Positions 5,395 through 31,509 of a stretch of DNA of 64,000 bases are shown one piece after another. A program made the position numbers and the translations under genes. The stretch comes from Planctomycetota bacterium. Lineage in GTDB: Bacteria; Planctomycetota; Planctomycetia; Pirellulales; Pirellulaceae. The notes beneath the pieces are model-generated. The model worked only from the letters and a program-made list of their open reading frames with translations, had not been told where the DNA came from and did no database searches. The stretch is taken from NCBI GenBank assembly GCA_963204965.1, contig CAUJKA010000218.1, forward strand, positions 17,464-81,463, given 5' to 3'. Positions within the stretch are counted from its first letter, which is position 1, and each line of letters opens with the position of its first letter.

Positions 5395-5411
5395 TTAGCA
5401 AATCTCTTTCG

Positions 5412-7492: not shown

Positions 7493-7914
7493 TGGGTAGT
7501 TTACCGCAAATTCAGAATAACCGAATAACCAACTGCCAGAGGTTGATTCAAATCCCTCCGAGAATCGGTTATTTGCAACGATTTGCCGACCCTACGGCAA
7601 TTGACAGTGACTTTAACGATTCGGACGTAGCTCTGAAGCAGTGCTCGTGAAATGTAGCTCTTAGGGAGCAGGCCGAACCTCGATCGAGCACCGACTGAAC
7701 ACCCGCGGGCAGTGGCAGCGTAATTGCTATAATCAGTCGCATAACGCCCGAAGAAGTTTTAGTTGGACTATCGTGATCGCCATTTCCCATGCCTCTCCCG
7801 CTCAATTGCCACGACATTTCCATCGTGCATGGAAGACGGGCCAAGGGCGGAGTTTCAGGTCGATCGCATCCTTGATGTTTTGGCGATGAATTTTCCACGC
7901 AAGCGGGTTGAGTA

Positions 7915-14368: not shown

Positions 14369-14446
14369 GGATGGTGAGCTGAATAGAAACAATCGAGAGT
14401 GAAGCTAAATTGAGCTTTGGACTAAGCCTCAATTGTGGCGATTCCC

Positions 14447-15198: not shown

Positions 15199-18100
15199 AT
15201 GCCAAATGCCGGAAATCAGGTACAGCCCATCGCAATTGTTGGAATGGCTTGTCGCTATCCTGGAGAGTTGGAAGATATTCAAAAGCTCTGGGAAGGGCTG
15301 CGCAACAAATACAACGCTATCTCCGAAACGCCACCTGATCGCTGGTCCGCTGATCGTTATTACTCGGCGAACGAAGCTTCTCGAGGCAAAACATATGTTC
15401 GCCGCGGTGGTTATCTGAAGCGCGATCCGCGACTCTTTGACGCGGGATTTTTCGGCATTTCGCCGCGCGACGCAGAGAACATGGATCCGCAGCAACGTTT
15501 AATGCTGGAAGTTACTTGGGAGGCGTTTGAAAACGCAGGTCTCAATCTTCCCGAGCTTGCGCGCCGAAGTGTGGGTGTGTACGTCGGCGGCTTTATGCTG
15601 GACCACATGATCACACAGATGTCGTTTGCCAATCGATCTGCGATCAACCAATACAGCGCAGCGGGCATGATGATGACCATGTTGTCCAATCGTGTCTCCC
15701 ACACGTTTGACTTCCGCGGCCCCAGCCTTTCTATCGATACCGCCTGTTCATCATCACTCGTCGCATTTCACTACGCTTGCCAAGATATTTGGAAGTCGGC
15801 ATGTGAACTGGCCGTTGTTGGTGGCGTCAATGTGATGATGCGGCCCGAGTATCCCATTGGCATGTGCAAAGGCCATTTTCTTGCCAAAGACGGACAGTGC
15901 AAGTCGTTTGATGAACGAGGCGACGGATATGGCCGCGCCGAAGGTGCGGGCGTAGTTTTGCTCAAGCCTCTTTCGAAAGCAATCGAAGACGGCGATGACA
16001 TTTGGGCAACAGTCATTGCAACTGGAACCAATCAAGACGGTCACACTCCAGGTATTTCCATGCCTAACGGTGAGGCTCAAGCAGATTTGATCCGCGAGGT
16101 TTGTAGCAAATACAACGTAGATCCACGTTCGGTTCAATACGTCGAATGCCACGGAACCGGAACGGCTATCGGCGACCCGACCGAAGCTGGCGCAATCGGA
16201 ACGACCTATGGTGTTGGACGAAGCGAAGACAATCGAGTCATCATCGGCACGATCAAGAGCAATCTAGGACACATGGAAGCTGGTGCTGGTGTAGCCGGTA
16301 TCATCAAGGCGACGCTCACGTTACACCATCGAGAGACTTCGCCGCTAGCCAATCTACAAACGCCCAATCCAAACATCAATTTCGATGCCTTGGGTGTGAA
16401 GCTATCCGATGCAAAGTACCAGCTTGTATCTACCGACTCGACTCCAGTTCGCGCCGCGGTCAATTCCTTCGGATACGGCGGATCAAATGCTCACGCCATT
16501 CTTCAAGCCTTCGATCATTCTGTCGAACAGAACTCCGCTCAGCCGCGAAATGGCTTCGTCGGTGCCGACAATTCCGTCGAATCGTTGCCAATGATGTTGC
16601 CAATTACCGGGCGAAGCGTCAACGCGGTCAACGATTTGGCACGCTGCTACTACGAGATGCTCGAAGCAGGCACAAATCTCGACGATCTGATCTACAGCCT
16701 AATCCGCCGTCGCGCGCATTTGACTCAGCGACTCGTTGTGGCCGGACGTAATAGCGAAGATCTCAAAAAGAATCTGAAGGCTGTCCTCGATGGAGAAGTC
16801 GCCGGACAGTTCGCTCGGGGACAAAGTCCATACTCCGGCTCGGGTAAGCCAGTCTTTGTGTTCACTGGCATGGGCCCGCAGTGGTGGGCGATGGGTCAGG
16901 AACTTTACGCTCAAAACTCAGTCTATCGCAACGCAGTTGATAAAGCGGATCGAGTTTTCCAATCGATTGCTGGCTTCTCTGCTTTGGCTGAGATGATGAA
17001 GGACGAGCAAAGTTCGGAAATCACTAAGACTGAATTTGCACAGCCTGCGAACTTCTTGATTCAAATTGGACTCACTGAAGTACTTCGTTCACGCGGCATT
17101 GAACCAGCCGCATGCGTGGGACACTCAGTGGGTGAGCTAGCTTCGGCGTATGTCGCTGGAGTGCTTTCCTTAGAAGACGCGATGACGGTCTGCTACCATC
17201 GAAGCCAACAGCAAGCCAAAGCTCGCGGAGCTGGAAGCATGATCGCTGTTGGAGTCAATCTAGAACGCGCCAAAGAGTTGGTGGCAAACTGTGATGGAGC
17301 CGTTTCGATTGCCGCGATCAATGGTGAGACCAATATCACCTTAGCCGGTGAAACCGAATCAATCGTTGCCATCTCCGAAGAGCTCACTACACAAAACGTC
17401 TTCAATCGATTGTTGGAAGTCGAAGTTCCTTACCACGGTCCAGCTATGGACCCGTTGATGGAGCCATTGGCTTACGATCTCCGTTCGATTCAGCCTAAGC
17501 TTCCAACAATGCAGCTCTATTCGACCGTTACGGGACAACGAGTCGATGGTGTTGCCTATGGAGCAGGTTATTGGCCGAAGAACATTCGTCAGCCTGTCGA
17601 ATTCGTTCAGGCAATCCGCAGCGCGATCAACGACGGGCACACGATCTTCATCGAAGTCGGTCCTCACCCGGTTCTGGCAACGTCATTGAAAGAGTGCATC
17701 CAAAGCTCGGGCAAGGACTGTCGCCAACTTTTCACTCTCCGACGAAAAACCTCGGAAGTGGAAGCCATGGATCGCTCGGTGCTGGAGTACTACGCTTTTG
17801 GTGGACGACTAGCTTGGAATAAGATCATTCGTCCTGGCAAGATCATTGGCTTGCCGAATTACTCTTGGCAACGTGAATTGCTCTGGGTTGAAAACGATCG
17901 CGCGGGACAAGATCGCCGTGAAATTGTGACCCATCCTATCCTAGGTATCCAAGAAGCACCGGCGACGTGCGCCTATCGTAACGATTTCGATTTTGAATCG
18001 GTCAATTACCTTCGCGATCACCAAGTGATGGGGTTGCCGATCCTTCCTGCCGCTGGATACATCGAGGCGTTCATGGAGCTGGCAGGAATTGAGTTTTCGC

Positions 18101-21100
18101 AAAGCCCCGGTTTGGCACTTCGGAACTTTGAAATATCGGCGCCACTCATTCTCAAAGACGATCGCGGTATCGATTTTGTCACCTCTTATGATCCGCTAAC
18201 GCGTAAGATCGTTGGGCGAAGTTTGGACAATGGAAAGCTCGGACCTGGACAAACACATGCTCGAGCTGACGTGGGCGTCGTCTCGGTTGCCGGTGGAAGC
18301 CAATGCGATTTGACGAATTTGAAGAGCTTGATCTCATCGAAGATTGAAACCAAGCAGTTCTATCAGCAACTCTGGGCCATCGGTTTGCAATATGGCCCGG
18401 CTTTTCAAACAGTCTCTGAGCTCTACGTCGCCGACGACAAGATGCAGAGCTTGGCTCGACTGGAGCTCAATCAACTACATGCGAGCTATTTGGACAAATA
18501 CCGCATGCATCCTTCGCTTCTGGACGGATGCTTCCAAACATTGATGGCCATGATCGATACGCAATCGGCGACCTACTTGCCGACAAAGATCGACGAAATC
18601 CGTCTCTATGTTGACAGACTTCCTGAGCAGATCTGGTGTCACGGTCGCTTGCAAGAGATGAATCAGAGGTTCGTCGACTGCCACCTCGATCTTTACGATA
18701 TGGAAGGCAATCTCGTTGCCAGCGTGAAGCGACTTCGCGCCAACGCGGCCGCCAAGCGCCAACGTACGGACAAATGGGGTGACCCAGTCAAGCTACAGAT
18801 TCTCAAGTACATTTGGCAAGTTGGTGAGAACCTTCCTGAACCACGACGCTTAGGTAACTGGATGGTCATTGGTGACCAAGCCGACCTAAGTTCATTGGTG
18901 GTCCAGCAGCTTGAGAATTTCGGTGCGATTGTTGGTGCCCACGTTCGAGCCGGCAATCAACTAGAGTTCGATGGACGCGAAGTCACGCTACGACCTGAAT
19001 CGTTGGAAGATTGGTCTGAGGTTCTCTCGCAACATGATGAAATCGACGGCATTGTCTTTACCTGCACGCTCGATGCATGGCCTCAATCAGATGATCCGAC
19101 GGGGCAGTGGCAATTGCGACGAATTGTTACGGCGCTTCAGGCCTACTTCCGAACCAAGCGCAGCGACACTCCTCGTGTCTATCTGTTAACGCAGTCTGCC
19201 TTCCAAGTCATTCCAAGCGATACAGAACTCAATCCGGCACAAGCTTCGTTCAATGGATTTGCTCGTGTGGCCTTTAACGAGCTTGAAGTGGGGCGCGTTT
19301 CGACCATCGATCTTCCTAGCTCGATCGATCCCGCTAGCTTCGAAGCGCTGATCCAAGAGTTGATCTGTGACGGTGCCGAAGACGAAATCGCGATTCGCGA
19401 TGGTCAGCGTTTCGTTAGCGAATTAGCTTTGACTGAGGATCTAACAAAGGATATCTCTCGAGTTGGTTACTTCGACAAGGACAACCCAATTCTAATTCGT
19501 CCCAGCAATGCTGACAGCGATGTTGGCGTCGTTCGCGTGCTAGCAGACAAGCTTGAAGCCCTAAAGCCGAATCACGTTCGAGTCATGCTGGAAAAGTCGG
19601 CTGTGCCAATCGTCTTCCTTAAGGGAGCGCCTGACGAAATTGTCGAACGACCTTGGATGGAATTTGTCGGGACTATTCTGGAACTCGGTAGCGAAGTTCA
19701 GGGATTAGATGTCGGCTCACGCGTTTGTGGACTTGTACCTGCGGAAACAGCCAGCCACCTTACCGTACCAGCCAAATCCCTACATGTCGTTGAAATTGGT
19801 GCTGACGACAACGCGTCGAAATTGGTCGCTTCCTTGGGTGATCTAACCCGAGTGTCCGCGGCGATCGAGCAGTTGAACTTTGCATCTGGGCAAGTAGCCG
19901 CGATTGAAATCAGCAACATTGGACTTGAACTGGCTGATCAGCTTGAAGAGGCGGGAGTTAAAGTCCTGCTTCTGACGGACGACATCGACTCGGTTGAACC
20001 AGCCGTTCTGGCAACTCGAACAGTCGTACCGATGGATGCTCTGCGTATCGATCAGCTTGTTGCTGAACATACGCATGGCGAAGGCTTTGCAATCTTAGTA
20101 GTTCGAGCCAGTGCTTGGCAGGAAAAGCTTGGCTGGGGACACCTTGCTGTTGGTGGATCGGTGGTAGATATCGACAGCCAGACCAATGATCTTGCACTCT
20201 CGGGCAGCATCGGTTCAGTAATTCGAACTTCGCTAGCCATTCTCGCACACCAACCAGCCTTATTGCGAAGATCGATCTCGCGTGCGATTGATTTGATTCG
20301 GTCAGGTCAGCATCGCGAGTCAGGATACTTCGAGGTCTCGTTAGCGGATATCGCTTGGCAGAAGCTGCCGTTCAGCGATTCCCTAGGAGCTTTGGTTCTA
20401 TCGCTTGAGAAGCTGGATGCCGAGCTACCAGTGATTCAACGCGATGACTTTAGATTCAAGTCCGGTGGCACCTATCTGATCACTGGAGGCTTAGGAGGCT
20501 TTGGGCAACAGACTGCTAAGTGGCTTGTTGACAACGGAGTCACATCGATCGTATTGACTGGCCGAACTGGAGCTGACACACCTAATAAGCAAGCGTTTGT
20601 TAAGGACCTTGAGTCAACTGGGGCGAGCGTTTTTGCGGTTCCGTGCGATGCTTCGGATCGGCGAGCTGTCCGAGCATTGATTGAGAAAATCAATAGCGAG
20701 ACGGCTCCTCTGAAAGGCATCATTCACTCTGCGGCAGCCATCATCGATGAACCTATCGTTGATATTGATCTGAATAACTTGTCGACAGTGATGCGAAACA
20801 AAGCAGATGCTGCATGGATACTTCATGAGGAAACGAAGGATCTTCCCTTAGATCACTTCATCCTCTACTCGTCGGCCGCCAATCTTGTGGGCAATAGTCG
20901 ACAGTCGATTTACAGCGCTGCAAACGGCTTCCTCAACGGACTAGCCCACATGCGACGCCAGATGGGGTTGCCTGGTCTTTCGGTCAATTGGGGTGCGATC
21001 GGCGATGTGGGCATCGTTGCTCGCGATGAGAAGTTGGAGCAGTTTCTCCGCTATGTCGGCTTGAGTGGCATAGAGTCGCGTGAGGCACTTGAGTATCTGA

Positions 21101-21555
21101 AACTGGCCGTTGGTCGCGATGAAACTCAAGTCGGCGTTCTCATTATGAAGTCATGGGCCGACTGGGGACGCTTCGAAGTTCGCGCAGGTACCTCCGCTCG
21201 TTATCAAAAGCTCATCGCCAGCGATGCCAGCGGTGGTGATTCGGCGGCAAAGAATGCGCTTGTGGAAGAGCTTTCCAAATTGCAGCCCGATGAACAGCTG
21301 GAGGTCTTGGTCACTCTGATCACCGATGTGCTGGCCGGAATTCTCAAGACTGACGCGTCGCAGATTCATCCGTCACGTCCTATCAATGAGCTTGGTGTTG
21401 ACTCGTTAATGGCAACCGAGATTCAGATGAGTCTAGAACAAACGCTTGGACTTAAAGTGGCTGTTCTCGAACTGTTGGGCGATTCGACGATCATGTCACT
21501 TGCTAGAAGTTCGCTGACGTCCCTACAGCTAACCAGCCCTATTCCCGTCGGCTAA
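15199..21555 (+). CDS. Single-module, highly reducing type I polyketide synthase: KS-AT-DH-(degenerate ER)-KR-ACP, with no loading or release domain
   Basis: 2118 aa. An AGGAAG lies about 10 nt upstream of ATG 15199.
- KS: DTACSSS (Cys183, 15745-15747), ECHGTGT, GSNAH.
- AT: GHSVGE.
- DH: HPILG, LRDHQVMGLPILPAAG, LQYGPAFQ, LLDGCFQ.
- ER-like fold that lacks the GGVG NADPH loop.
- KR: LITGGLGGFG and SAANLVG...YSAANGF.
- ACP: LGVDSLMATEI (Ser2069, 21403-21405). Confidence 0.95.
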   Translation: MPNAGNQVQPIAIVGMACRYPGELEDIQKLWEGLRNKYNAISETPPDRWSADRYYSANEASRGKTYVRRGGYLKRDPRLFDAGFFGISPRDAENMDPQQRLMLEVTWEAFENAGLNLPELARRSVGVYVGGFMLDHMITQMSFANRSAINQYSAAGMMMTMLSNRVSHTFDFRGPSLSIDTACSSSLVAFHYACQDIWKSACELAVVGGVNVMMRPEYPIGMCKGHFLAKDGQCKSFDERGDGYGRAEGAGVVLLKPLSKAIEDGDDIWATVIATGTNQDGHTPGISMPNGEAQADLIREVCSKYNVDPRSVQYVECHGTGTAIGDPTEAGAIGTTYGVGRSEDNRVIIGTIKSNLGHMEAGAGVAGIIKATLTLHHRETSPLANLQTPNPNINFDALGVKLSDAKYQLVSTDSTPVRAAVNSFGYGGSNAHAILQAFDHSVEQNSAQPRNGFVGADNSVESLPMMLPITGRSVNAVNDLARCYYEMLEAGTNLDDLIYSLIRRRAHLTQRLVVAGRNSEDLKKNLKAVLDGEVAGQFARGQSPYSGSGKPVFVFTGMGPQWWAMGQELYAQNSVYRNAVDKADRVFQSIAGFSALAEMMKDEQSSEITKTEFAQPANFLIQIGLTEVLRSRGIEPAACVGHSVGELASAYVAGVLSLEDAMTVCYHRSQQQAKARGAGSMIAVGVNLERAKELVANCDGAVSIAAINGETNITLAGETESIVAISEELTTQNVFNRLLEVEVPYHGPAMDPLMEPLAYDLRSIQPKLPTMQLYSTVTGQRVDGVAYGAGYWPKNIRQPVEFVQAIRSAINDGHTIFIEVGPHPVLATSLKECIQSSGKDCRQLFTLRRKTSEVEAMDRSVLEYYAFGGRLAWNKIIRPGKIIGLPNYSWQRELLWVENDRAGQDRREIVTHPILGIQEAPATCAYRNDFDFESVNYLRDHQVMGLPILPAAGYIEAFMELAGIEFSQSPGLALRNFEISAPLILKDDRGIDFVTSYDPLTRKIVGRSLDNGKLGPGQTHARADVGVVSVAGGSQCDLTNLKSLISSKIETKQFYQQLWAIGLQYGPAFQTVSELYVADDKMQSLARLELNQLHASYLDKYRMHPSLLDGCFQTLMAMIDTQSATYLPTKIDEIRLYVDRLPEQIWCHGRLQEMNQRFVDCHLDLYDMEGNLVASVKRLRANAAAKRQRTDKWGDPVKLQILKYIWQVGENLPEPRRLGNWMVIGDQADLSSLVVQQLENFGAIVGAHVRAGNQLEFDGREVTLRPESLEDWSEVLSQHDEIDGIVFTCTLDAWPQSDDPTGQWQLRRIVTALQAYFRTKRSDTPRVYLLTQSAFQVIPSDTELNPAQASFNGFARVAFNELEVGRVSTIDLPSSIDPASFEALIQELICDGAEDEIAIRDGQRFVSELALTEDLTKDISRVGYFDKDNPILIRPSNADSDVGVVRVLADKLEALKPNHVRVMLEKSAVPIVFLKGAPDEIVERPWMEFVGTILELGSEVQGLDVGSRVCGLVPAETASHLTVPAKSLHVVEIGADDNASKLVASLGDLTRVSAAIEQLNFASGQVAAIEISNIGLELADQLEEAGVKVLLLTDDIDSVEPAVLATRTVVPMDALRIDQLVAEHTHGEGFAILVVRASAWQEKLGWGHLAVGGSVVDIDSQTNDLALSGSIGSVIRTSLAILAHQPALLRRSISRAIDLIRSGQHRESGYFEVSLADIAWQKLPFSDSLGALVLSLEKLDAELPVIQRDDFRFKSGGTYLITGGLGGFGQQTAKWLVDNGVTSIVLTGRTGADTPNKQAFVKDLESTGASVFAVPCDASDRRAVRALIEKINSETAPLKGIIHSAAAIIDEPIVDIDLNNLSTVMRNKADAAWILHEETKDLPLDHFILYSSAANLVGNSRQSIYSAANGFLNGLAHMRRQMGLPGLSVNWGAIGDVGIVARDEKLEQFLRYVGLSGIESREALEYLKLAVGRDETQVGVLIMKSWADWGRFEVRAGTSARYQKLIASDASGGDSAAKNALVEELSKLQPDEQLEVLVTLITDVLAGILKTDASQIHPSRPINELGVDSLMATEIQMSLEQTLGLKVAVLELLGDSTIMSLARSSLTSLQLTSPIPVG
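15220..16510 (+). other. PKS ketosynthase domain
   Basis: Runs from IAIVGMACRYPG to DTACSSS, ECHGTGT and GYGGSNAHAIL. The Cys-His-His catalytic set is visible. Confidence 0.9.
16850..17720 (+). other. PKS acyltransferase domain
   Basis: Carries VFVFTGMGPQWWAMG, GHSVGELASAYVAG and FIEVGPHPVL. The specificity-motif position reads VPYHGPAM rather than the canonical HAFHS or YASHS. Confidence 0.85.
17900..18760 (+). other. PKS dehydratase domain (all four hallmark motifs present)
   Basis: HPILG, HxxxGxxxxP (DHQVMGLPILP), GYxYGPxF-like (LQYGPAFQ) and DxxxQ (LLDGCFQ) are all present. Confidence 0.8.
19570..20290 (+). other. ER-like (medium-chain dehydrogenase fold) region with the NADPH-binding motif lost
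   Basis: HVRVMLEKSAV...EFVGTILELGSEVQGLDVGSRVCGLVP matches the N-terminal MDR/ER pattern. Where HAAAGGVG is expected, the sequence reads AAIEISNIGLELADQLEEAGVKVLLL (19891-19938). Confidence 0.6.
20460..21150 (+). other. PKS ketoreductase catalytic subdomain
   Basis: Carries GTYLITGGLGGFGQQTAKWL (Rossmann) and SSAANLVGNSRQSIYSAANGFLNGLA (Ser/Tyr/Asn). Confidence 0.85.
21300..21480 (+). other. PKS C-terminal acyl carrier protein domain
   Basis: Carries INELGVDSLMATEIQMSLEQ. The protein ends about 45 aa later with no TE, R or C domain. Confidence 0.9.
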
Positions 21556-21605: not shown

Positions 21606-22961
21606 ATGAGCATTCGAACCAGTATTGATAAACTTCGCGAAAATCTTCTCGCCAATAAGAAAACCGAAGGTAAAGCATCCGAGTCGCCGGATTCGGCGCC
21701 TTCCGTTCCTGCAGTTCCGTTGAGCGATATTCCCTCATCCAGCTACCAATTCGAGCATTTTCCTGAGTACAAGGAATATGCAACGATGATCTGGTATTGC
21801 GATAAGCAAAAGTTTCCACAGAACTTGTTTCAGCCTCACCTGGGCTCGTCAGATGCTACCGTTCAAATCAACGGCAGCACCTACATCAACTTCTCGACTT
21901 ACAACTACTTGGCACTTGGTTCCCACGAACGAGTTAAGAATGCCGCGATTGAAGCAGTCAAGACATATGGCGTCGGCACTGGATCGGGGCGTTCAATCAC
22001 TGGTGAGATTAGCCTTCACAGCGACTTCGAGCGAGAGATCAGCGAGGCTCTTGGTACCGAAGACGCTGTACTCTCTGTGGGTGGCTACAGCACCAACACT
22101 TTCACGATCGGATACCTTTGCCGCAACCAAGACTTGATTCTTTATGACGAGCTGATTCACAACTCGGCGTTGGCTGGATGCAAAATGACCGGCGCGCGTC
22201 GATTCAGCTTTCCACATAACGACTACGACGCGCTAGCCAAGCTGTTGGAGATTCATCGAGGCAAATTCGAACGCGTTCTGATTTTGGTCGAAGGCGTTTA
22301 CAGCATGGACGGCGACATTCCTGATGTCCCCAAGCTGATTGAGATTAAGAATAAATACAAAGCGACTTTGATGGTCGACGAAGCTCACTCGATGGGCGTT
22401 ATCGGTCCCAATGGCCTTGGCGTCTGCGACTACTTCGGAATCAAGGGATCCGAAATTGACATCCTTTATGGATCGCTGAGCAAGTCGTTTGGAACATGCG
22501 GAGGTTATGTCGCTGGTCCTAAGCCATTGATCGCGATTCTAAAGCACTATGCTCCAGGCGTTTTGCTGTACGGTGCCTCACCGACGCCAGCGAATGCAGC
22601 CGCTGCACTTGAGTCGCTGCGGATGATGCGCGAACATCCAGAATTGGCTCAACGACTTCAACAAAACGCCGCCTACTTTATTGAACGAGCCCAAGCTGCA
22701 GGACTTGATACTTATCACAGCAAGGACTCGGGGGTGGTGCCGATCATGATGCGAGACTCGGAACTGGCCCTATGGCTTTCCATGAAGCTCTGGGAGTCCC
22801 GGATTTGCAGCTATCCAATGATGCATCCGATAGTCCCTCGCGACAAAACGCGACTGCGATTCTTCCTCAATGTGAATCACACTCGCGAGCAGATCGATCA
22901 CACGATCGACGTCATCACCAGTAGTTTGCGAGTGGCTCCAAAGTCCAAAGGTCTTTTCTAG
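21606..22961 (+). CDS. Alpha-oxoamine synthase family PLP enzyme (SPT / BioF / KBL / CqsA-like acyl-thioester:amino-acid C-acyltransferase)
   Basis: Class-II aminotransferase fold with NFSTYNYLAL, SGRSITGE, MVDEAHSMG and the PLP-lysine motif GSLSKSFGTCGGYVAG (Lys293, 22482-22484). It has an N-terminal extension of about 70 aa. Confidence 0.9.
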   Translation: MSIRTSIDKLRENLLANKKTEGKASESPDSAPSVPAVPLSDIPSSSYQFEHFPEYKEYATMIWYCDKQKFPQNLFQPHLGSSDATVQINGSTYINFSTYNYLALGSHERVKNAAIEAVKTYGVGTGSGRSITGEISLHSDFEREISEALGTEDAVLSVGGYSTNTFTIGYLCRNQDLILYDELIHNSALAGCKMTGARRFSFPHNDYDALAKLLEIHRGKFERVLILVEGVYSMDGDIPDVPKLIEIKNKYKATLMVDEAHSMGVIGPNGLGVCDYFGIKGSEIDILYGSLSKSFGTCGGYVAGPKPLIAILKHYAPGVLLYGASPTPANAAAALESLRMMREHPELAQRLQQNAAYFIERAQAAGLDTYHSKDSGVVPIMMRDSELALWLSMKLWESRICSYPMMHPIVPRDKTRLRFFLNVNHTREQIDHTIDVITSSLRVAPKSKGLF

Positions 22962-23022: not shown

Positions 23023-24036
23023 ATGAAACAGGTAGTGTATGAAAAATTTGGACCGCCATCGACGGTGGCTAAGTGCGTGGATGCGCCCGATCCGCAGGCC
23101 CCATCTGCTTGGGAAGTCATCGTTGCTGTTGACGCTTTTCCAATCAACCCAGCAGACTTGGCCATGATGTACGGGCAGTACGGCATCCTGAACAAGCCAC
23201 CTTCGACAATTGGAATGGAGGCGGTGGGTACTGTCGTAGAAAAGGGCAAGTCAGTCGCCAATCTGTCGATTGGCGACCGAGTTATCCTGCTTGCCAACAA
23301 TAACTGGGCAACCTTGCGAAAGGTACCAGCGACGCTTGCGATTAAAGTTCCTAGCGATTTGAACGTGTTGCAATTAGCAATGCTGAAAGTCTCGGGACTA
23401 ACGGCATATCAGATCCTCTCGCGGATTGAACTGCTCAAGTCAGGCCAGTACGTCATTCAAAACGCTCCACTATCCGCAGTGGGCCGTTATGTGATTCAGA
23501 TTGCAAAAGAGCTCGACCTTCGCACGATAAACCTCGTTCGTCGACCAGAGCAAATGGACCAAGTGACTAAGCTGGGTGGCGATCTGGTGTTCTTAGACGA
23601 AGGCTCTGTAGTTGATGCAGTCAAGCAGAAGATTGGTAGCGGTGCGGTCCGGATCGGCATTGATGCGGTCGCTGGCCCTTCGACTCATCGACTAGCTGAA
23701 TGCCTGCAAGATGGCTGCACAATAGTCAACTATGGCATGCTTTCGATGCAGCCTTGTCAAATCGATGCGTCGCAGACGATCTTTCGCGGGATTCGCTTGA
23801 TCGGTTTCTGGCTCAGCAGAGTACTCAACAAGCTCTCAGCACAAGATCGAGAGCAGCAACTGCTGCGCCTAGTGGGAATGATGACCGAAGGGAAGATCCA
23901 TGGGGCTATCGATTCGGTCTATTCCATTGAAAATATCAGCCAAGCCATTCGACGTGCAGAACAACCCGCACGAGCCGGAAAAGTTCTCGTGAGCATGAAC
24001 TCAGCGGATCACTCGTTGCCAGTGGGAGGCAACTAG
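23023..24036 (+). CDS. MDR-family 2-enoyl thioester reductase (MECR/Etr1-like); candidate trans-acting ER
   Basis: VIVAVDAFPINPADLAMMYGQYG matches the ETR-family PINP(A/S)D...G.Y motif. IGDRVILL is also present, with a Rossmann region VIQNAPLSAVGRYVIQIAK. No Zn-ligand Cys pattern is seen. Confidence 0.85.
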   Translation: MKQVVYEKFGPPSTVAKCVDAPDPQAPSAWEVIVAVDAFPINPADLAMMYGQYGILNKPPSTIGMEAVGTVVEKGKSVANLSIGDRVILLANNNWATLRKVPATLAIKVPSDLNVLQLAMLKVSGLTAYQILSRIELLKSGQYVIQNAPLSAVGRYVIQIAKELDLRTINLVRRPEQMDQVTKLGGDLVFLDEGSVVDAVKQKIGSGAVRIGIDAVAGPSTHRLAECLQDGCTIVNYGMLSMQPCQIDASQTIFRGIRLIGFWLSRVLNKLSAQDREQQLLRLVGMMTEGKIHGAIDSVYSIENISQAIRRAEQPARAGKVLVSMNSADHSLPVGGN

Positions 24037-26696
24037 TGCAACAACATTTGGGATCGAAGTCTGAAGCGGCAGCCGCTCAGGATTCTCCTGCGACAGGTAT
24101 TCAGTTTCAATTTGAGCTGAGTAAGCAAGTAGGCGAACCGGTAGAGGTTGCTCACGGAGTATGGTGGATTCGTTTACCGATAGATTCCTCGTTGGACTTT
24201 GTGAATGTCTACGCGTTGCGTGATGGCAATCGATTGACCCTGGTTGATGTAGGTGTCAACAGTGCTTCCAGCATTGCTGCCTTAGATGCGGCTTTAGCGT
24301 CGCCTACACTGGCACAATTGCCGCTCAAACGAGTTATCGTCACTCACTTTCATCCCGACCATATTGGTGCGGCAGGCATTTTGGCTCAACGCGGCATCGA
24401 GCTTTGGATGTCACGCACATGTTGGCTTTCTTGCAAGTTGCTCCTGCAAACGGCCGCGAGTGCGCCGAAGACTCCTGAAGTCGAGTTCATGCGTCGAGCA
24501 GGCCTGTCGGGAATCGAACTAGAAGCCTACAAGCGACAACCGCCTCACCGCTACCAGAAGCAAGTCGCAGCTCTTCCCGACGATTTTGTACCGCTATCCG
24601 ATGGCCAGCACCTGACAATTGGTGATCGTAGTTGGAAGATACTCGTAGGTAATGGTCACGCCGCTGAACATCTAACGCTTTGGAGCGATGGCTTGGCGAT
24701 TGTCGGCGATCAGATTCTCCCTAGCATTTCCAGTAACCTGACAATCCCATTCACCGAACCCGAAGGCGACTTGGTCGCGGAGTGGTTGCTGAGCTGTCAG
24801 AAGCTATTGACCGTTGCCGACAACCAAATTCTAGGTTTGCCAGGGCATCAGCGACCGTTTACAGGTTTACAAAATCGACTGGTCCAAATTCAAAGCAACA
24901 TGGAAGGTGCAATGGAGCGATTGTCCAAGATCTTGGTTCGTCCAAGTTCAGCACTGGAGTGCATGGAGCAGTTTCACAATCGATCATTGACTTTTGATCA
25001 ACGCAAACAGATGCTCCCCGAGATCGTCGGATTCCTGAATCACCTTTATCGCAAAGGCGATGTAGAACGAAAGCAGTCTCCACAAGGCTCCTTTGTCTAC
25101 ACACGCAAACGCAACACGTTAGTCGAACTCTCCACTTCGCATCCAACGAAGGAAGATAAAATGAACTCTCCCATATTGCCTTCCAACACCCCGCCGACTG
25201 CGGTACAGTCGGCGCCGGAAGCTGTTGAGTCCACAGCGCAAGCCTTACCAGAGGCCGTCACTCCCGTTGCAGTTACTTCCACGCAGCAATTTTCAAGCGA
25301 GTCCGTCGCATCCAAGGCCAACACCTCTTGGCTTCAGCCGAAACGCTGGATAGCTGCTCTCAGCTTGGTTGGAATTCTTGGCGCTTGTTACGCCTATCGC
25401 GATCAGCTTCAAGTCTGGGGTAACGAAGCGTTCGATAAGCTCTCGCAAATTCAGCTTTTGGAAAAGCCTCAATCGGTCCGACAGGAACTCAGCACAACAG
25501 TCATGCCTGTTCAGGTAATGACCCTGAAGAACTTGTCGAGCACTGAATTGCCGCGTCGCTTCACTGGAGTCATTAAGCCCCGACGTGCCAGTGAGATTGG
25601 CTTTAATCGCGTCGGCACGATGGATGAGATTTTGGTTGAACGCGGCCAGCGAGTTGAAAAGGATGCGGTATTGGCCAAGTTGAATGTTGCATCGCTGCAA
25701 GCCAACATGAAAGCAGTTCAGGCACAATACAAAGCAGCAACGGCACGACTGGAAGAGATGATCGCTGGTCCGCGCTCTCAAACAATCGATTCGGCTAGAA
25801 ATCAATTCGATGCTGCAAGGGCAGAACTGGACTTGGCTAAGACCTCGTTGGGCCGAGCCGAGCGACTGGTCAGCATCGGGGCCGTTTCTAAGCAAGAGGT
25901 CGACAACGCTCAGACTATGGTCAAAGCGAAGCAAGAAGCTGTCAACGCGGCAGAGAATACATTGAACGAATTGAAGGAGGGCACCCGAACAGAACAAATT
26001 CGGGCACAACGAGCCGTACTGAACGAATTGGAAGCTGCTCAAGATCAAATGAAGGTACAGCTTGATGAAAGTGTGATTCGCGCGCCTTTTGCAGCGGCTG
26101 TGTCTGAGCGATTCCTTGATCCGGGTACAGTGTGCTCGCCTGGAGTTCCTGTGGTGCGATTGATCGAATTGGTCTCGCCTGAAGTCTGGATTGGTCTACC
26201 GCCGGAGTATTCCGCGGCAATGAATCAAAGCAATTCGTACTCGATCAAAGTCAATGGTCAGAGTTTTGATGCGAAGCTCAAGAGCGTTCTACCCGAGCTG
26301 GATAGTGGCACACGAACTAACACGGTAGTCTTCGAACTGGAGACGTCGGACAGCAATTCAATTTTTGGTCAAGTTGCTGAGATCGAGCTTTCTCGTCCTA
26401 TTCGTGAAAGTGGTTTCTGGCTGCCTATGTCAGCAATCGTCAAGGGAGATCATGGACTCTGGGGAGTGTTGGTCCTAGAAAAAGATCCAGAGAGTGGTAA
26501 CTCCAGATTGGTCAAGCAAGAGCTGGAAGTGGTTCACGTCGATTCCGACCGCGTTTATGCGCGTGGAACTATTGCCGATGGCGAACGAGTCGTAGCGACT
26601 GGGTTGCAGCGTTTGACGCCGGGCCAATTGGTGCGAGCGTTGGGTACCGATGATGGTCAACAAGTTGGTGTCAACGACGACGCCACGCTTCGCTAA
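24036..26696 (+). CDS. Fusion protein: N-terminal metallo-beta-lactamase-fold hydrolase, TM helix, then C-terminal RND/HlyD-type periplasmic adaptor (membrane fusion protein)
   Basis: The GTG start at 24036 overlaps the TAG of the previous gene. The MBL motif is THFHPDHIGAAG (HxHxDH at 24345-24362), followed by GHAAEH and LPGHQRPF. A P/T/A/S linker leads to the TM helix WIAALSLVGILGACYAY (25347-25397). The MFP part has lipoyl, coiled-coil and beta-barrel regions. An in-frame internal ATG at 25161 is preceded by GAAGGAAG. Confidence 0.8.
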   Translation: MQQHLGSKSEAAAAQDSPATGIQFQFELSKQVGEPVEVAHGVWWIRLPIDSSLDFVNVYALRDGNRLTLVDVGVNSASSIAALDAALASPTLAQLPLKRVIVTHFHPDHIGAAGILAQRGIELWMSRTCWLSCKLLLQTAASAPKTPEVEFMRRAGLSGIELEAYKRQPPHRYQKQVAALPDDFVPLSDGQHLTIGDRSWKILVGNGHAAEHLTLWSDGLAIVGDQILPSISSNLTIPFTEPEGDLVAEWLLSCQKLLTVADNQILGLPGHQRPFTGLQNRLVQIQSNMEGAMERLSKILVRPSSALECMEQFHNRSLTFDQRKQMLPEIVGFLNHLYRKGDVERKQSPQGSFVYTRKRNTLVELSTSHPTKEDKMNSPILPSNTPPTAVQSAPEAVESTAQALPEAVTPVAVTSTQQFSSESVASKANTSWLQPKRWIAALSLVGILGACYAYRDQLQVWGNEAFDKLSQIQLLEKPQSVRQELSTTVMPVQVMTLKNLSSTELPRRFTGVIKPRRASEIGFNRVGTMDEILVERGQRVEKDAVLAKLNVASLQANMKAVQAQYKAATARLEEMIAGPRSQTIDSARNQFDAARAELDLAKTSLGRAERLVSIGAVSKQEVDNAQTMVKAKQEAVNAAENTLNELKEGTRTEQIRAQRAVLNELEAAQDQMKVQLDESVIRAPFAAAVSERFLDPGTVCSPGVPVVRLIELVSPEVWIGLPPEYSAAMNQSNSYSIKVNGQSFDAKLKSVLPELDSGTRTNTVVFELETSDSNSIFGQVAEIELSRPIRESGFWLPMSAIVKGDHGLWGVLVLEKDPESGNSRLVKQELEVVHVDSDRVYARGTIADGERVVATGLQRLTPGQLVRALGTDDGQQVGVNDDATLR

Positions 26697-26723: not shown

Positions 26724-29700
26724 ATGATTACCCAGTGGTTCGTTACCAATCCTCGTCTGCTCGTGATGACTATCGTTCTGATTGTTGTCGCTGGCGTAAC
26801 GTCCTTTATCGCTCTGCCGCGAATGGAAGATCCCATTCTGACGGCGCGATTCGCTATTGTTACCACAGTGTTTCCCGGTGCATCGCCTGATAGAGTCGAA
26901 GCACTCGTTTCCAAAGGACTCGAGCAACAGCTCATCGATATCAAGGAAATTCGTGAAACCACGTCGATCAGCCGCACAGGCGTCTCAGTTTTGGTTATCG
27001 AACTCAATGAAGAGCTCAAGAAGGACCAGGTCGCCACAACTTGGGGCGTGATTCGCGAACGACTCAACGCCGCGCACGGAGTTATGCCAGAATTGGTGAT
27101 GAAGCCCAAGCTCAGAGAGCTGGATGCTAAGGCGAACGTGATGTTGGTGGCGGTTCGTTGGGACAGCCAAAGCGAACCTAGCTACTCCATTCTTCGACGT
27201 CTTGCCAAGCGATTGCAGGAACGCATCGACCTGATCCAAGGTACAGAAAAAACCTCACTCTTTGGCGATCCCGAAGAGGAATTCCTTGTCGAAGTTCAGC
27301 GAGAGAAAGCCAACAGTCTAGGTCTGAGTGCTTTTCAAATCTCCCAAATGATTTCTGGGAACGATACCAAGTTGCCAGCGGGTCGAGTCCAAGGGGCAAC
27401 CTCGGGGCTGACGCTTGAAGTGGTTGGAAACCTGGATACGAAGACTCGACTCAGCCATTTGCCAATTCGTCGAGATGTCTCGGGATCGATTGTCGAACTT
27501 GGCGATATCGCAACGGTGTCGCGAGCTACACCGGACCCTGCTCCTGCAAAAGCTTTTGCCAGTGGTAAAGCAGCAATCGTTGTTGGAGCTCAGCTGCAAG
27601 ATTCGTATCGTATCGACCATTGGCGAACCGATGCGGCCAAAACTCTGAAGGAGTTCGAAGCTGAACTGCCATCGGGAGTTGGGCTCGATGTGATGTTCGA
27701 TCAGGCTCCGTATGTCAGCGAGCGATTTGTCTCCTTGGAGCAGAACTTTTTGATGGGGTTAGTGTCCGTCTTCATCTGCACCGTGATTTGGATGAACCTT
27801 CGCAGTGCGATTATCGTTGGGGCTATGTTGCCCTTGAACTGCCTGCTCATTCTCCCAATCTTACTTGTGTTCGATATTCCGCTGCATCAAATGTCGGTTA
27901 GCGGTTTGGTCATCGCGATGGGAATGTTGGTAGATAACGCCATTGTTGTGGTCGATCACATCGAGCATAAGGTATCGCATGGCGACTCGGTCCTTGATGC
28001 CGCGCTAGACAGTTCAAAGTACCTTACCGTGCCCTTGTTGGGAGCAACGCTTACAACGGTCTTCTCATTCGCACCCATTGCGTTAATGCCTGGCGCGACC
28101 GGTGAATTCGTTGGCTCGATTGCCATGGTGACGATCATCACGGTAAGTCTGTCTTACTTTCTAGCACTGTCGGTAATTCCTGGTATTAGCTTGCTGGTAT
28201 TCAAGCCATCCAAGAAGAAAGCCAACTGGCTGACTAATCCCTTTCGCATTTCTGAGAACATCTATCGGCTTTTGCTGAGAGGACTACTTCGTTTTCCACT
28301 GTTCGGAGCACTCCTAACGGCTTCGACGGGAATTGCGGGGTTGTTTTTTGTTTTTGTACTGGAAGATCAATTCTTTCCGCCCGCCGATCGCGATCAATTC
28401 CATATCGAAGTAGATCTTGCGGCAAACGCATCAATGGCTGAGACGCAGCAACTGGCAGCCGACATTCGAAAGATTGCCTTGGACGATGAAGCTATAGAAG
28501 AAGTCCATTGGTTCATCGGCGAGAGTGCTCCTGTTTTCTACTACAACGTAGCCACAGTTCGGTCTAATCAGCCCAGTTATGGGCAAGCTATTGTGAAGTG
28601 CCGCAGCGCCAGCGTTGCCAGAGCAGCCATGTTGCGATTACAGCCCAAGTTAGTCGAGAAATTCCCACAGGCCAACATCTCGGTCCGACAACTTGAGCAG
28701 GGACCACCGTTCACCGCTCCAATTGAAGTTCGCGTGACAGGGCCAGACATCGAACGATTGAAGTCACTGGCTGCTAAGGTTCGCTTGGTATTGGGTGGCA
28801 CGCCCGGAATTACCCATACTCGCTGCGATCTGGAAGAGATCGCAACCAAGGCTCGCGTCAACATCGACCAAACTGCCTCGTATGTTGCTGGTTATGACCT
28901 TTCAACCATTGCAATGTCGTTGAACAGTTCCTTGGACGGGATCGTGGGCGGATCGATTCTGGAGGGGACCGAAGAGATTCCAGTCCGCGTTCGCATGGCC
29001 AGTAACCAACGTGGTGATCTAAATGAGATCGTGTCGTTAGAGCTGCAGGCTCAAGGTCGCGGGGAAGCCTTCCGGCATCAAGGGATTCCTCTATCAGCAA
29101 TCGCTAATCTTTCGCTATCATCGGATGTGGGATCGATTGTTCGCGTGAACCGCGTTCGTTGCGCCGATGTGCACGGCTTTCTGCCTGCTGGCGTACTTCC
29201 GTCCGTAGTTCAAAAAGAGTTTAAGGAACGGCTTGCAAAGTCGGATTTCGAATTGCCAACAGGATATCGAGTTCAGTATCTGGGAGCAGCCGGAGAGCAG
29301 CAACAAGCCTTGGGGAACCTAACCGTTTATGCCACAGTCATGGGCGCTGCATTGGTCGCTACACTGGTGCTAAGTCTCAATTCATTTCGGATGGCAGGCT
29401 TGGTCGGAATGGTCAGCCTTTTGAGCGTAGGATACAGTCTGATGTCACTAGGCTTGTTGAACCTACCATTCGGCTTCATGGCTATCATCGGTATCGTGGG
29501 CATGTTGGGTGTTGCCGTTAATGATTCAATCTTGATTGTCACATCAATTGCTCTGGATTCTAAAGGAAGTCGAGGCGATAAAAAGCAGATCATCGAAATC
29601 CTGGTGGAGAATTCGCGGCACGTACTTGTAACTAGTATTACGACAATTGCCGGGTTCTTGCCTCTTTACCTTAGCGGCGGAGACTTTTGGCCGCCGACTG

Positions 29701-29828
29701 CTGTGTGTGTTTCGATGGGTGTGGCTGGGTCTACTTTTCTAGCTTTGTTCTTCGTGCCATGTGCGTTCATCGTATTGAACCGCTGGCCATCAGTTAAACT
29801 CTTTCGTCAATCTGGCGAGTCCAAATAA
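26724..29828 (+). CDS. RND-superfamily efflux permease (AcrB/AcrD/AcrF-like)
   Basis: 1034 aa. The N-terminus MITQWFVTNPRLLVMTIVLIVVAGVTSFIALPRMEDP is typical of RND pumps. Two large periplasmic loops alternate with two TM bundles. It sits directly after the MFP. Confidence 0.9.
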   Translation: MITQWFVTNPRLLVMTIVLIVVAGVTSFIALPRMEDPILTARFAIVTTVFPGASPDRVEALVSKGLEQQLIDIKEIRETTSISRTGVSVLVIELNEELKKDQVATTWGVIRERLNAAHGVMPELVMKPKLRELDAKANVMLVAVRWDSQSEPSYSILRRLAKRLQERIDLIQGTEKTSLFGDPEEEFLVEVQREKANSLGLSAFQISQMISGNDTKLPAGRVQGATSGLTLEVVGNLDTKTRLSHLPIRRDVSGSIVELGDIATVSRATPDPAPAKAFASGKAAIVVGAQLQDSYRIDHWRTDAAKTLKEFEAELPSGVGLDVMFDQAPYVSERFVSLEQNFLMGLVSVFICTVIWMNLRSAIIVGAMLPLNCLLILPILLVFDIPLHQMSVSGLVIAMGMLVDNAIVVVDHIEHKVSHGDSVLDAALDSSKYLTVPLLGATLTTVFSFAPIALMPGATGEFVGSIAMVTIITVSLSYFLALSVIPGISLLVFKPSKKKANWLTNPFRISENIYRLLLRGLLRFPLFGALLTASTGIAGLFFVFVLEDQFFPPADRDQFHIEVDLAANASMAETQQLAADIRKIALDDEAIEEVHWFIGESAPVFYYNVATVRSNQPSYGQAIVKCRSASVARAAMLRLQPKLVEKFPQANISVRQLEQGPPFTAPIEVRVTGPDIERLKSLAAKVRLVLGGTPGITHTRCDLEEIATKARVNIDQTASYVAGYDLSTIAMSLNSSLDGIVGGSILEGTEEIPVRVRMASNQRGDLNEIVSLELQAQGRGEAFRHQGIPLSAIANLSLSSDVGSIVRVNRVRCADVHGFLPAGVLPSVVQKEFKERLAKSDFELPTGYRVQYLGAAGEQQQALGNLTVYATVMGAALVATLVLSLNSFRMAGLVGMVSLLSVGYSLMSLGLLNLPFGFMAIIGIVGMLGVAVNDSILIVTSIALDSKGSRGDKKQIIEILVENSRHVLVTSITTIAGFLPLYLSGGDFWPPTAVCVSMGVAGSTFLALFFVPCAFIVLNRWPSVKLFRQSGESK

Positions 29829-31385
29829 ATGATCAAAATACAGCCTACTGAAAACTATGATGCCATCGTGATTGGGTCAGGAATTGGCGGTATGACCGTC
29901 GCCAGCCTGTTGACTCAACTTGGCAAAAAGCGAGTGCTCTTACTTGAACGCCACTTTAAGTTGGGAGGGTACACCCATGCGTTTCGACGTGGCAAGTACG
30001 AGTGGGATGTTGGTGTGCACTACATCGGCGAAATGCATGCTGACAAGCTTTGTCGACGCGTGATGGATTTAGTCACCAATAGCCAAGTCCTTTGGCATCG
30101 CTGTGGACCAATCGTCGAGCGATTTCATTTTCCCGAAGGCACTTTTGAAGTACCCGATGATCCAGCTAAGTTTAAAGAGCGACTCATCGAGCGATTTCCA
30201 GAGGAACGCGAGAACATCATTCGTTATTTTCGAGATGTGAAACGCTGCCAAAGCTGGTTCGCACGATTTTTCATGTCGAAAATGCTGCCGCCTTTTCTCG
30301 CCAAGCTACTGACGCTCCCGGGGCGGCGATTGGCTGAAACCGTAACGGCTGATTATCTTGAGAATTTCAGTTCGCAATTCCTTAAGGGCATCCTTACCGC
30401 ACAATGGCCCGACTTTGGTGCTCCGCCGGAGGAAAGTGCGTTTGCATTTCACTCTGCTGTGACGGCAGACTTCTTTCATGGTTCGTTTTATCCCTTAGGC
30501 GGTTCCGCTGTTATTGCTGAATCGGTAGAGAAGATCGTGAACGATGGCGGTGGAGCCTGTTTGGTCAATCATGATGTTCAAGAGATCATCGTAGAGAATG
30601 GAAAAGCGGTCGGTGTGCGCGCTACGCACAAGAATCGAGAGGTCGTGTTTCGCGCTCCAGTAATCGTTTCTAACGCCAATTCGATTGCGACCTTTGGCAA
30701 GTTTGTTCCAGAGGGATACTGCAAAGCGGAGAAGGAACAGGCGAAGCGAGTCAAGCACGGAACTTCGGCTATGGCACTGTTTATCGGACTCAAGGATGAT
30801 CCTCGCAATCATGGTTTTGACGATGCCAACTACTGGTTCTATTCAAGCTCGGATCATGACAGTCAACCCTCGAAGACTCATCCATATGGGGTTCACGGAG
30901 GCTATCTATCGTTCGGTTCACTTCGCAACCCTGGCATGCAGGCCCACACGGCACAAATCGTGACTTTCAGCCAATATGACTTGTGGAAGCAATTCGCCGA
31001 CAGTCCCTGGAAACGCCGCGGCGAAGAATACGAGAAGCTCAAAGCGGAAATGACGGAGAAGATACTCCAATTCGCCGAGCGTTATGTGCCCCAGTTAAGG
31101 TCAATTATTGACTACGTCGAATTATCAACACCTGTAACGTTTGAGACATTTTCGGGACATCCTTCGGGAATGGTGTACGGGCAAATGGCCGATCCAAATC
31201 GTCTAAATCGCGATCAATGGCGGATTTCGACCAGCTTGCCCAATCTCTATCTCGCCGGAAGCGACATTGGTTCACCTGGCGTCAATGGTTCCCTAATGGC
31301 TTCGGTGTTTACAGCAGTCAAACTTTTGGGACCTTCCGCCTTCCTGAAGATCTTTGGGTCCGATAAACCTAAAAAAACGCCGTAA
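29829..31385 (+). CDS. FAD-dependent oxidoreductase of the phytoene desaturase (CrtI) / retinol saturase-like family
   Basis: The dinucleotide-binding motif is YDAIVIGSGIGGMTVASLL...LLLERHFKLGGY. WDVGVHYIGEM and the C-terminal LYLAGSDIGSPGVNG are also present. The ATG abuts the RND stop (TAAATG). Confidence 0.85.
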   Translation: MIKIQPTENYDAIVIGSGIGGMTVASLLTQLGKKRVLLLERHFKLGGYTHAFRRGKYEWDVGVHYIGEMHADKLCRRVMDLVTNSQVLWHRCGPIVERFHFPEGTFEVPDDPAKFKERLIERFPEERENIIRYFRDVKRCQSWFARFFMSKMLPPFLAKLLTLPGRRLAETVTADYLENFSSQFLKGILTAQWPDFGAPPEESAFAFHSAVTADFFHGSFYPLGGSAVIAESVEKIVNDGGGACLVNHDVQEIIVENGKAVGVRATHKNREVVFRAPVIVSNANSIATFGKFVPEGYCKAEKEQAKRVKHGTSAMALFIGLKDDPRNHGFDDANYWFYSSSDHDSQPSKTHPYGVHGGYLSFGSLRNPGMQAHTAQIVTFSQYDLWKQFADSPWKRRGEEYEKLKAEMTEKILQFAERYVPQLRSIIDYVELSTPVTFETFSGHPSGMVYGQMADPNRLNRDQWRISTSLPNLYLAGSDIGSPGVNGSLMASVFTAVKLLGPSAFLKIFGSDKPKKTP

Positions 31386-31509
31386 CATAGATGTACAGTT
31401 TCAACGTAGTGGGAATCGCCAGAATTCCTAATGCCACAGAAATCACTGAGCTGCAGGTTTTCTGACGAATTCCACTATCCCCATCAAGAGTTGAAAAGCG
31501 ACTAACTGT

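Follow-up and report, generated by a model that had tools for sequence, protein, structure and literature searches.

A metallo-beta-lactamase-fold hydrolase fused in frame to an RND periplasmic adaptor in a polyketide synthase operon of Pirellulaceae

Architecture of the fused gene and its operon

The stretch of DNA analysed here, called the window throughout, comprises 64,000 nucleotides from a planctomycete of the family Pirellulaceae (GenBank assembly GCA_963204965.1, contig CAUJKA010000218.1, positions 17,464 to 81,463 of the forward strand). Our subject is the fourth gene of a six-gene operon within it, in which a metallo-beta-lactamase (MBL)-fold hydrolase is joined in frame to the periplasmic adaptor of an RND efflux pump (Table 1). 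This MBL::adaptor gene is a genuine, evolutionarily fixed fusion, and each of its halves is an ordinary member of its own superfamily. The original prediction, made from the letters of the sequence alone, had described one open reading frame (ORF) of 886 amino acids (aa) joining a complete MBL domain to a full adaptor, and this description is borne out by Pfam, NCBIfam, AlphaFold2 and Foldseek. It had also placed an HFHPDH motif at 24345-24362, a transmembrane (TM) helix at 25347-25397 and, within the linker, the sequence GAAGGAAG at 25148-25155 ahead of an in-frame ATG at 25161; all of these coordinates are correct.

The GTG start of the fusion gene overlaps the stop codon of the upstream reductase gene (TAGTG) and is preceded by a Shine-Dalgarno (SD) sequence, GGGAGG, whose duplex with the anti-SD (-10.2 kcal/mol) is the strongest among the gene starts of the window. 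Pfam finds Lactamase_B in the N-terminal part of the protein (E = 8e-14) and HlyD_3 and HlyD_D23 in the C-terminal part, and the NCBIfam model TIGR01730 (RND_mfp), whose cutoff is 94.9, is matched at 160 bits. An AlphaFold2 model, a check proposed in the original prediction, has a mean predicted local distance difference test (pLDDT) score of 74 and is made up of four regions: a confident MBL domain (residues 21-357), a disordered linker (361-433, pLDDT about 30), a helix (435-453) and a four-domain adaptor (490-869). Foldseek comparison of this model with the Protein Data Bank (PDB) gives structural matches for both halves.

Table 1. Features of the window discussed in the text, with positions numbered from its first nucleotide
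Feature	Position	Strand	Remarks
Type I polyketide synthase (PKS), KS-AT-DH-KR-ACP, ends at ACP	15199..21555	+	First operon gene; syntenic in all related loci
Alpha-oxoamine synthase (AOS), BioF/Kbl/SPT family	21606..22961	+	64-96% identical across cassettes
MDR-family reductase (Zn-ADH/quinone oxidoreductase-like)	23023..24036	+	Stop overlaps fusion-gene start
Fused MBL::adaptor gene (MBL-fold hydrolase, linker, TM helix, RND periplasmic adaptor)	24036..26696	+	886 aa, GTG start; uninterrupted ORF
Predicted cytoplasmic MBL-fold metallohydrolase with C-terminal helical/winged subdomain	24096..25106	+	aa 21-357
Disordered S/T/P/A-rich cytoplasmic tether	25107..25346	+	aa 358-437, about 80 residues; pLDDT about 30
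Internal GAAGGAAG and ATG (M376)	25148..25163	+	GAAGGAAG at 25148-25155, ATG at 25161; would give a 511-aa product
Single TM helix, N-in (KR before, RD after)	25347..25397	+	aa 438-454; AlphaFold2 helix 435-453
Periplasmic adaptor core: lipoyl, alpha-hairpin, beta-barrel and membrane-proximal domains	25503..26645	+	aa 490-870, TIGR01730
AcrB-family RND inner-membrane permease	26724..29828	+	27 nucleotides 3' of fusion gene; partner of the adaptor
CrtI/amine-oxidase-like FAD oxidoreductase	29829..31385	+	Last operon gene; homologue adjoins MBL cassette in every related locus
ACP-thioesterase	2989-4059	-	
KAS III	4378-5394	-	
SDR	5412-6287	-	
Sulfotransferase	6284-7492	-	
HlyD-type adaptor	7915-9075	+	Divergent from 2989-7492 set
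Fused ABC ATPase-permease	9024-11330	+	

The MBL half is modelled as the alpha-beta/beta-alpha sandwich of its superfamily, with a core pLDDT of 80-95, and carries the HxHxDH motif and the downstream His, Asp and His expected of PF00753. The motifs HFHPDH, GHAAEH and GHQRPF correspond to H104-H109, G207-H212 and G270-F275. The metal ligands H104, H106, D108, H109, H208, D225 and H271 show no variation in alignments of 14 and of 23 homologues, and each is aligned with its counterpart in the solved homologue 5u8o. This answers the worry voiced at the outset that careful alignment might reveal a domain devoid of metal ligands. Sequence searches of the PDB match the domain to 5u8o, 6ao1 and 5i0p (E = 1e-45, about 30% identity), and the target-normalised TM-scores from Foldseek are 0.79 for 5u8o, 5i0p and 6ao1 and 0.81 for 2zo4. 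Judged by its conserved residues, the N-terminal half is a ligand-intact dinuclear-metal MBL-fold hydrolase with predicted activity.

The halves are joined by a tether of 56-97 aa in the different homologues. Its sequence is hypervariable, the fraction of positions occupied by the majority residue being 0.27 in the linker as against 0.72 in both domains. Hydropathy was calculated with a 15-residue window (KD15), as a 17-residue hydrophobic stretch between charged residues escapes a 19-residue window. The segment at aa 438-454 (KD15 = 2.09) is the sole strong hydrophobic peak in the fusion protein, and every homologue examined likewise has one (KD15 1.8-2.7). In these homologues the net charge is +1 to +5 over the ten residues on its N-terminal side and about 0 over the ten that follow. 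Because the net positive charge lies on the N side of the sole TM segment, the helix is predicted to be oriented N-in, and because the N-terminus has no hydrophobic signal-like segment, the MBL half is expected to stay in the cytoplasm. The adaptor half has both the score and the four domains of a TIGR01730 member; its sequence matches TriAB and MexJ in the PDB, and Foldseek aligns it with AcrA, MexA and MacA over 390-430 columns. A topology with a cytoplasmic MBL, one N-in TM helix and a periplasmic adaptor is therefore supported by hydropathy, flanking charge and the structural models, in agreement with the earlier picture of a cytoplasmic hydrolase tethered to efflux machinery.

In the first gene of the operon, at 15199-21555, Pfam finds no thioesterase (TE) or R domain. 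The AOS at 21606-22961 matches bioF (1e-94) and the SPT models (6e-84), in all cases below the equivalog cutoffs. Together the PKS, the stand-alone AOS and the reductase make up a cassette of the sphinganine-analogue type. The same six-gene order is found in all five fused loci examined, namely the window and the loci L001, L002, L085 and L087. A gene for the outer-membrane factor (OEP) lies directly downstream in L001 (17498-19006), L002 (17395-18885) and L087 (17479-18966), and in a further locus, L091, it is found upstream of the operon (1-779).

Homologues, origin of the fusion and neighbouring genes

A search of 5.8 billion proteins yielded 23 full-length two-domain homologues with 45-92% identity. 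Those with names or context all belong to the Pirellulales; two of them are from isolates, Neorhodopirellula pilleata Pla100 and Pirellulaceae bacterium SH449, in both of which the six genes stand in the order seen in the window. When the query was the MBL domain by itself, 4616 relatives were found among 1.84 billion cluster representatives; among the best 150 of the 4616 only five 50%-identity clusters have the fused length, and these five are the closest of the 150, bar one unfused protein. The databases name the fused proteins either 'MBL fold metallo-hydrolase' or 'efflux RND transporter periplasmic adaptor subunit', and either automatic name hides half of the protein.

A codon alignment of the window gene with that of its 89% relative in L085 (dS about 0.8) gave ratios of non-synonymous to synonymous substitution (dN/dS) of 0.045 for the MBL domain, 0.03 for the adaptor and 0.30 for the linker. 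The sole indel between the two genes is of three codons and keeps the frame. With ratios of 0.03-0.045 and an intact frame, both halves are maintained by selection; by this measure, both domains are under strong purifying selection. The same alignment bears on the alternative that, through an error of assembly or sequencing, two ordinary genes look like one because a stop codon or a frameshift has been missed. In favour of such an artefact, versions of the operon with two separate genes do exist in other lineages, but the fused sequences number 23, are independent of one another and were drawn from NCBI, JGI, ENA and Logan assemblies, with the same protein occurring on four contigs, and the alignment with L085 stays in frame throughout. 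An artefact is thus exceedingly improbable, and assembly error was rejected as an explanation. It had also been foreseen that orthologues might never be fused and the MBL gene often be missing; the fused homologues just described and the occurrence of an MBL in every cassette examined speak otherwise.

Assembly GCA_036704275.1, the source of loci L085-L088, contains two fused homologues, 89% and 60% identical to the window protein and each present on two contigs; the PKS copy in L088 is split by a frameshift. This assembly seems to hold at least two Pirellulaceae genomes and may be host-associated or contaminated.

The company kept by unfused relatives indicates where the MBL gene belongs. Standalone MBL proteins of 359-377 aa are encoded in cassettes with PKS, AOS and reductase genes and one or more genes for CrtI-like oxidases in L003 (from an uncultured bacterium), L004 (from the cyanobacterium Phormidesmis priestleyi) and L092. 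L083 is a 1.9-kb fragment showing only reductase, standalone MBL and oxidase genes, and probably it too carries the PKS/AOS/reductase/MBL cassette. L084 has a different fusion, of the MBL with the MDR reductase upstream of it, in a 757-aa protein (ER::MBL, P0032; 9197-11470) that forms part of a cassette of PKS, AOS, ER::MBL and amine oxidase. Cassettes without an adjacent pump gene also have the MBL, and among the matches listed the proteobacterial MBLs, which show 30-43% identity to that of the window, have no PKS next to them. By gene order, then, the MBL gene is a member of the biosynthetic cassette and not of the pump. The pump, for its part, appears to be dedicated to the cassette and to travel with it even where unfused. 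In P. priestleyi the genes for the membrane fusion protein (MFP, the adaptor) and the RND permease lie on the opposite strand, 5-10 kb from the cassette; this MFP is 34% identical to the window adaptor over the whole periplasmic part (E = 2e-66), and the RND protein is 40% identical to the window permease over its full length. In L092 an MFP gene lies divergently upstream of the PKS.

Identity to the window in L003 and L004 is 64-73% for the AOS, 49-51% for the PKS and 42-43% for the MBL, and comparison of these genes suggests that the cassette has probably moved between phyla. The cyanobacterial adaptor orthologue (L004 19213-20808, - strand) has, if its start has been called correctly, an N-terminal cytoplasmic region of about 110 residues with tandem 'LPQV[SN]'-like repeats before the TM helix, in which case a long cytoplasmic tail may go further back in the history of these adaptors.

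Two loci with the gene order of the window preserve what resembles the state before fusion. In L089 the TGA of the MBL gene (365 aa) overlaps the ATG of the adaptor gene (ATGA), and the 478-aa adaptor has a 25-residue S/T/P-rich cytoplasmic tail before its TM helix; in L091 the MBL and adaptor genes are separated by a 78-nucleotide gap. A neighbour-joining tree of the MBL domains groups every fused protein with the unfused P0027 (L083) in one clade, for which bootstrap support is 98.5%, and leaves L089 and L091 outside it. The fused proteins alone are monophyletic in 13% of bootstrap replicates, and L083 has no firm position within the clade. Since the two-gene operons lie outside the fused clade, the fusion seems to have arisen once from neighbouring genes, and the tree points to a single such event, probably at the base of a Pirellulaceae clade. 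The suggestion in the original prediction that the fusion may come from two genes losing a stop codon accordingly holds as regards an origin from neighbours. It had left open whether orthologous loci would carry one gene or two, and both occur: the same fusion in L001, L002, L085 and L087, and two genes in L089 and L091.

The linker also contains what could be a second translation start. The original prediction had called its SD strong and suggested that the adaptor might also be made as a separate 511-aa protein. One ORF would then give two products, the 886-aa fusion and an adaptor begun at the ATG at 25161, and the ratio of enzyme to adaptor would be tuned in this way. The site is real: GAAGGAAG lies 5 nucleotides 5' of the ATG, its duplex energy of -6.2 kcal/mol equals or betters that of most genuine gene starts in the window, SD and ATG are both kept in the 89% relative L085, and in alignment M376 falls where the separate MFP of L089 begins, which suggests that it marks about where the ancestral separate adaptor gene would have started. 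Its strength is unexceptional, however, being matched or beaten at 16 of the 287 internal in-frame ATGs (5.6%) in the long ORFs of the window. Among close homologues the ATG is common only to the 89-92% relatives, for which the SD was read, and confirmed, in the DNA of L085 only, and conservation of the site between the window and L085 involves only some three synonymous sites. The 60% relative L087 has an ATG at the same residue without the SD (-0.6 kcal/mol), the N. pilleata linker has no ATG anywhere, and 10 of the 23 homologues have no Met in the linker. No promoter or terminator was detected on the + strand inside the operon using a sigma-70-type consensus, which may not fit planctomycetes. 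As an internal start with its SD is not conserved among orthologues, the site was rejected as a family-wide second start; a separately translated adaptor is not a family feature and is possible for the source strain only, and we think it unlikely that two products are made.

Beyond the end of the operon, and convergent with it, lies a gene for a Ser/Thr protein kinase with TPR repeats (31510-34536, - strand). Pkinase genes also flank the cassette upstream in N. pilleata (L001 1-768) and downstream in L084 (13262-15061), where a gene for an ECF sigma factor follows. Such kinase genes beside the cassette may hint at shared regulation. On the other side of the operon, a PolX gene (12635-14392) separates it from a second, small biosynthetic set (2989-11330), whose combination of sulfotransferase and thioesterase is reminiscent of terminal-alkene formation of the CurM/Ols type. 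A giant ORF of 7079 aa (34540-55779, - strand) has MBG_2, PKD and RTX calcium-binding repeats in its C-terminal half and no Pfam match in its N-terminal 3593 residues; it probably encodes a giant surface or adhesin-like protein.

Proposed chemistry and coupling to export

The architecture, topology, conservation, synteny and origin described above would fit the following scheme for the chemistry and its coupling to export. The PKS and the trans-acting reductase would build a long acyl chain, which the AOS would off-load by condensation with an amino acid to give a lipophilic product of the sphinganine-analogue type, either an amino-ketone or an amino-alcohol. The MBL would perform a late cytoplasmic hydrolysis on an intermediate that partitions into the membrane or, less likely, on a form bound to an acyl carrier protein (ACP) or other thioester. 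Adaptor and permease are usually present in a ratio of 6:3; on that assumption, with one MBL per adaptor protomer, up to six hydrolase domains would stand at the inner leaflet round each RND trimer. The finished, probably membrane-active product would then arise beside the pump that expels it, and the tether would fix the enzyme:pump stoichiometry and limit self-intoxication. The fusion would thus mark the MBL step as late and membrane-proximal. That a fixed fusion tethers a late MBL step of a PKS/AOS pathway beside a dedicated RND pump is, on the whole, the explanation we are inclined to accept, with some reservation. A bolder proposal, in which the RND pump is a cytoplasm-to-outer-membrane machine with up to six built-in hydrolases and the last step of amino-polyketide synthesis is stoichiometrically coupled to expulsion, is put forward more speculatively. 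If true, it would make this the first periplasmic adaptor with a catalytic cytoplasmic domain, and nature would have supplied a 'Rosetta-stone' proof of an efflux pump and a biosynthetic enzyme acting as one unit.

Assignment of a particular reaction to the MBL from solved structures or NCBIfam was attempted and rejected, as the best matches are uncharacterised structural-genomics MBLs and the named relatives are weak. Among the latter, the Bacillus 'paraoxonase' 8zxg matches at E = 3e-12, the Strvi_7410 family scores 54 bits where its cutoff is 525, and matches to the AidB lactonase and GloB families extend only over the metal motif.

One role considered in the original prediction, which spoke of release-coupled or processing-coupled export as a possibility, was that of a thioesterase for release from the PKS. 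The MBL would act in trans on the chain carried by the PKS ACP, and the fusion would recruit the PKS to the pump in a release-coupled export recalling MmpL7 and PpsE (see below). The PKS, lacking a TE or R domain, is consistent with this, as is the ER::MBL of L084, which puts the MBL beside an enzyme expected to act on ACP-bound intermediates, and MBL-fold thioesterases do exist, among them the fungal ACTE/AptB class, PqsE and MBLAC2. The AOS is nevertheless always in the cassette, and a hydrolytic TE would compete with this established class of off-loader; neither PDB sequence searches nor NCBIfam detected a sequence relationship between the MBL domain and characterised MBL thioesterases. Enzymes of the AOS class off-load the TE-less iterative PKSs of the fumonisin, sphingofungin and myriocin pathways, and on this fungal precedent the AOS is, by analogy, more likely than the MBL to release the chain. 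The earlier suggestion is weakened accordingly. A hydrolytic role downstream seems at least as likely for the MBL as chain release, and the full version with recruitment of the PKS strikes us as improbable.

Export coupling may also be dispensed with altogether. Tightly packed and translationally coupled genes could have been joined neutrally by a small indel or the loss of a stop codon, leaving an MBL that is merely tethered to the membrane. The ATGA overlap in L089 provides just such a starting point, the ER::MBL of L084 shows that the MBL can fuse with its upstream neighbour too, the linker is hypervariable and under relaxed constraint (note its dN/dS), and many lineages have the pathway unfused. 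A clade whose members have diverged as far as about 45% identity has nonetheless kept the fusion, and the frame has survived many linker indels. The sole unfused member of the clade, L083, is not a split version of the fused gene, as no MFP or RND gene lies between its MBL and oxidase genes, and confinement to the membrane would be costly for a soluble enzyme whose substrate is cytosolic. We consider a neutral fusion rather doubtful, if clearly worth entertaining.

Several points weigh against the tethering of a late MBL step beside its pump. The scan of the window ORFs detected no OEP gene, including the region after the oxidase gene (31386-31509), and none follows the oxidase gene in L085. 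RND pumps draw their substrates from the periplasm or the outer leaflet, so a cytoplasmic enzyme cannot feed one directly, and coupling requires a product that partitions into the bilayer and then flips to the other side. The reaction and substrate of the MBL are inferred, its nearest solved structures being uncharacterised entries. Sister lineages run the same pathway with an unfused MBL, so tethering is not essential, and the absence of MFP and RND genes from the MBL-oxidase interval of L083 tells in the same direction. The occurrence of a fusion to the other neighbour in L084 may mean that the MBL::adaptor gene reflects no more than tight gene packing. Sister lineages, in which the MBL and adaptor are variously fused, adjacent but separate, or accompanied by a divergent pump gene, offer a natural experiment on whether flux or self-protection gains from the co-localisation of a final biosynthetic step with export.

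Comparison with known systems

Full-text searches of the literature found no paper describing an MBL::adaptor fusion, or this cassette in Planctomycetes or cyanobacteria, and the remark in the original prediction that it knew of no described example still stands. The cassette is spread over Pirellulaceae, at least one cyanobacterium and several uncultured lineages, and the fusion serves as a Rosetta stone linking an otherwise orphan PKS/AOS cassette to a specific RND exporter.

For the MBL domain, the closest comparisons are the structures 5u8o, 5i0p and 6ao1, all from Burkholderia, and TTHA1429 (2zo4), a group of uncharacterised 'Zn-dependent hydrolases' in which PF00753 is combined with a C-terminal helical domain, PF21221. 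They share the HxHxDH, H, D and H ligands with the fusion protein, but unlike it they are soluble proteins that stand alone.

The cassette as a whole resembles the fungal clusters for sphinganine analogues, as represented by Fum1, Fum8 and Fum13 for fumonisin, by the sphingofungin cluster and by MyrB, MyrA and MyrF for myriocin, in combining a TE-less iterative PKS with a trans-acting AOS and a reductase. It differs from them in being bacterial and in having an MDR-type reductase, a CrtI-like flavoenzyme and an MBL hydrolase, and its transporter is an RND tripartite pump rather than one of the MFS or ABC families. The word 'lactamase' is not mentioned in the papers on fumonisin-, sphingofungin- and myriocin-type pathways that were compared.

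Periplasmic adaptors are generally viewed as connectors within the periplasm. With AcrA, MexA, TriAB and MexJ, all of TIGR01730, the fusion protein shares the four-domain fold of its C-terminal 380 residues and the position of its gene directly upstream of that for an AcrB-family permease. In contrast to adaptors of the AcrA type, its anchor is an N-terminal TM helix instead of a lipid, and some 360 residues on the cytoplasmic side form a predicted catalytic domain. In the reviews of adaptors that were consulted, the cytoplasmic regions mentioned are small or uncharacterised ones of ABC, MFS and type 1 secretion system adaptors, the substrate-binding tail of HlyD being an example, and no enzymatic domain is described. 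Substrate sensing by this short HlyD tail is the sole cytoplasmic function that they were found to document. A conserved, ligand-intact enzyme on the cytoplasmic face would extend what an adaptor subunit can do.

Cytoplasmic additions to adaptors are not unique to this fusion. The metagenomic protein P0181 (646 aa) has an N-terminal cytoplasmic globular domain on an MFP that is 38% identical to that of the window; the domain is a response-regulator receiver (residues 4-115), hence concerned with signalling and not a biosynthetic enzyme, and it is known from a single short contig. Another metagenomic relative of the adaptor, P0188 (587 aa), has a partial glutathione-synthetase N-domain. Both P0181 and P0188 lie on very short contigs and could be chimeras.

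A physical link between a transporter and the synthesis of a lipophilic polyketide has a precedent in mycobacteria, where MmpL7, of the RND superfamily, contacts the PKS PpsE. That link is a non-covalent contact between a loop of the transporter and the PKS, whereas here the enzyme and the adaptor of the pump are covalently fused.

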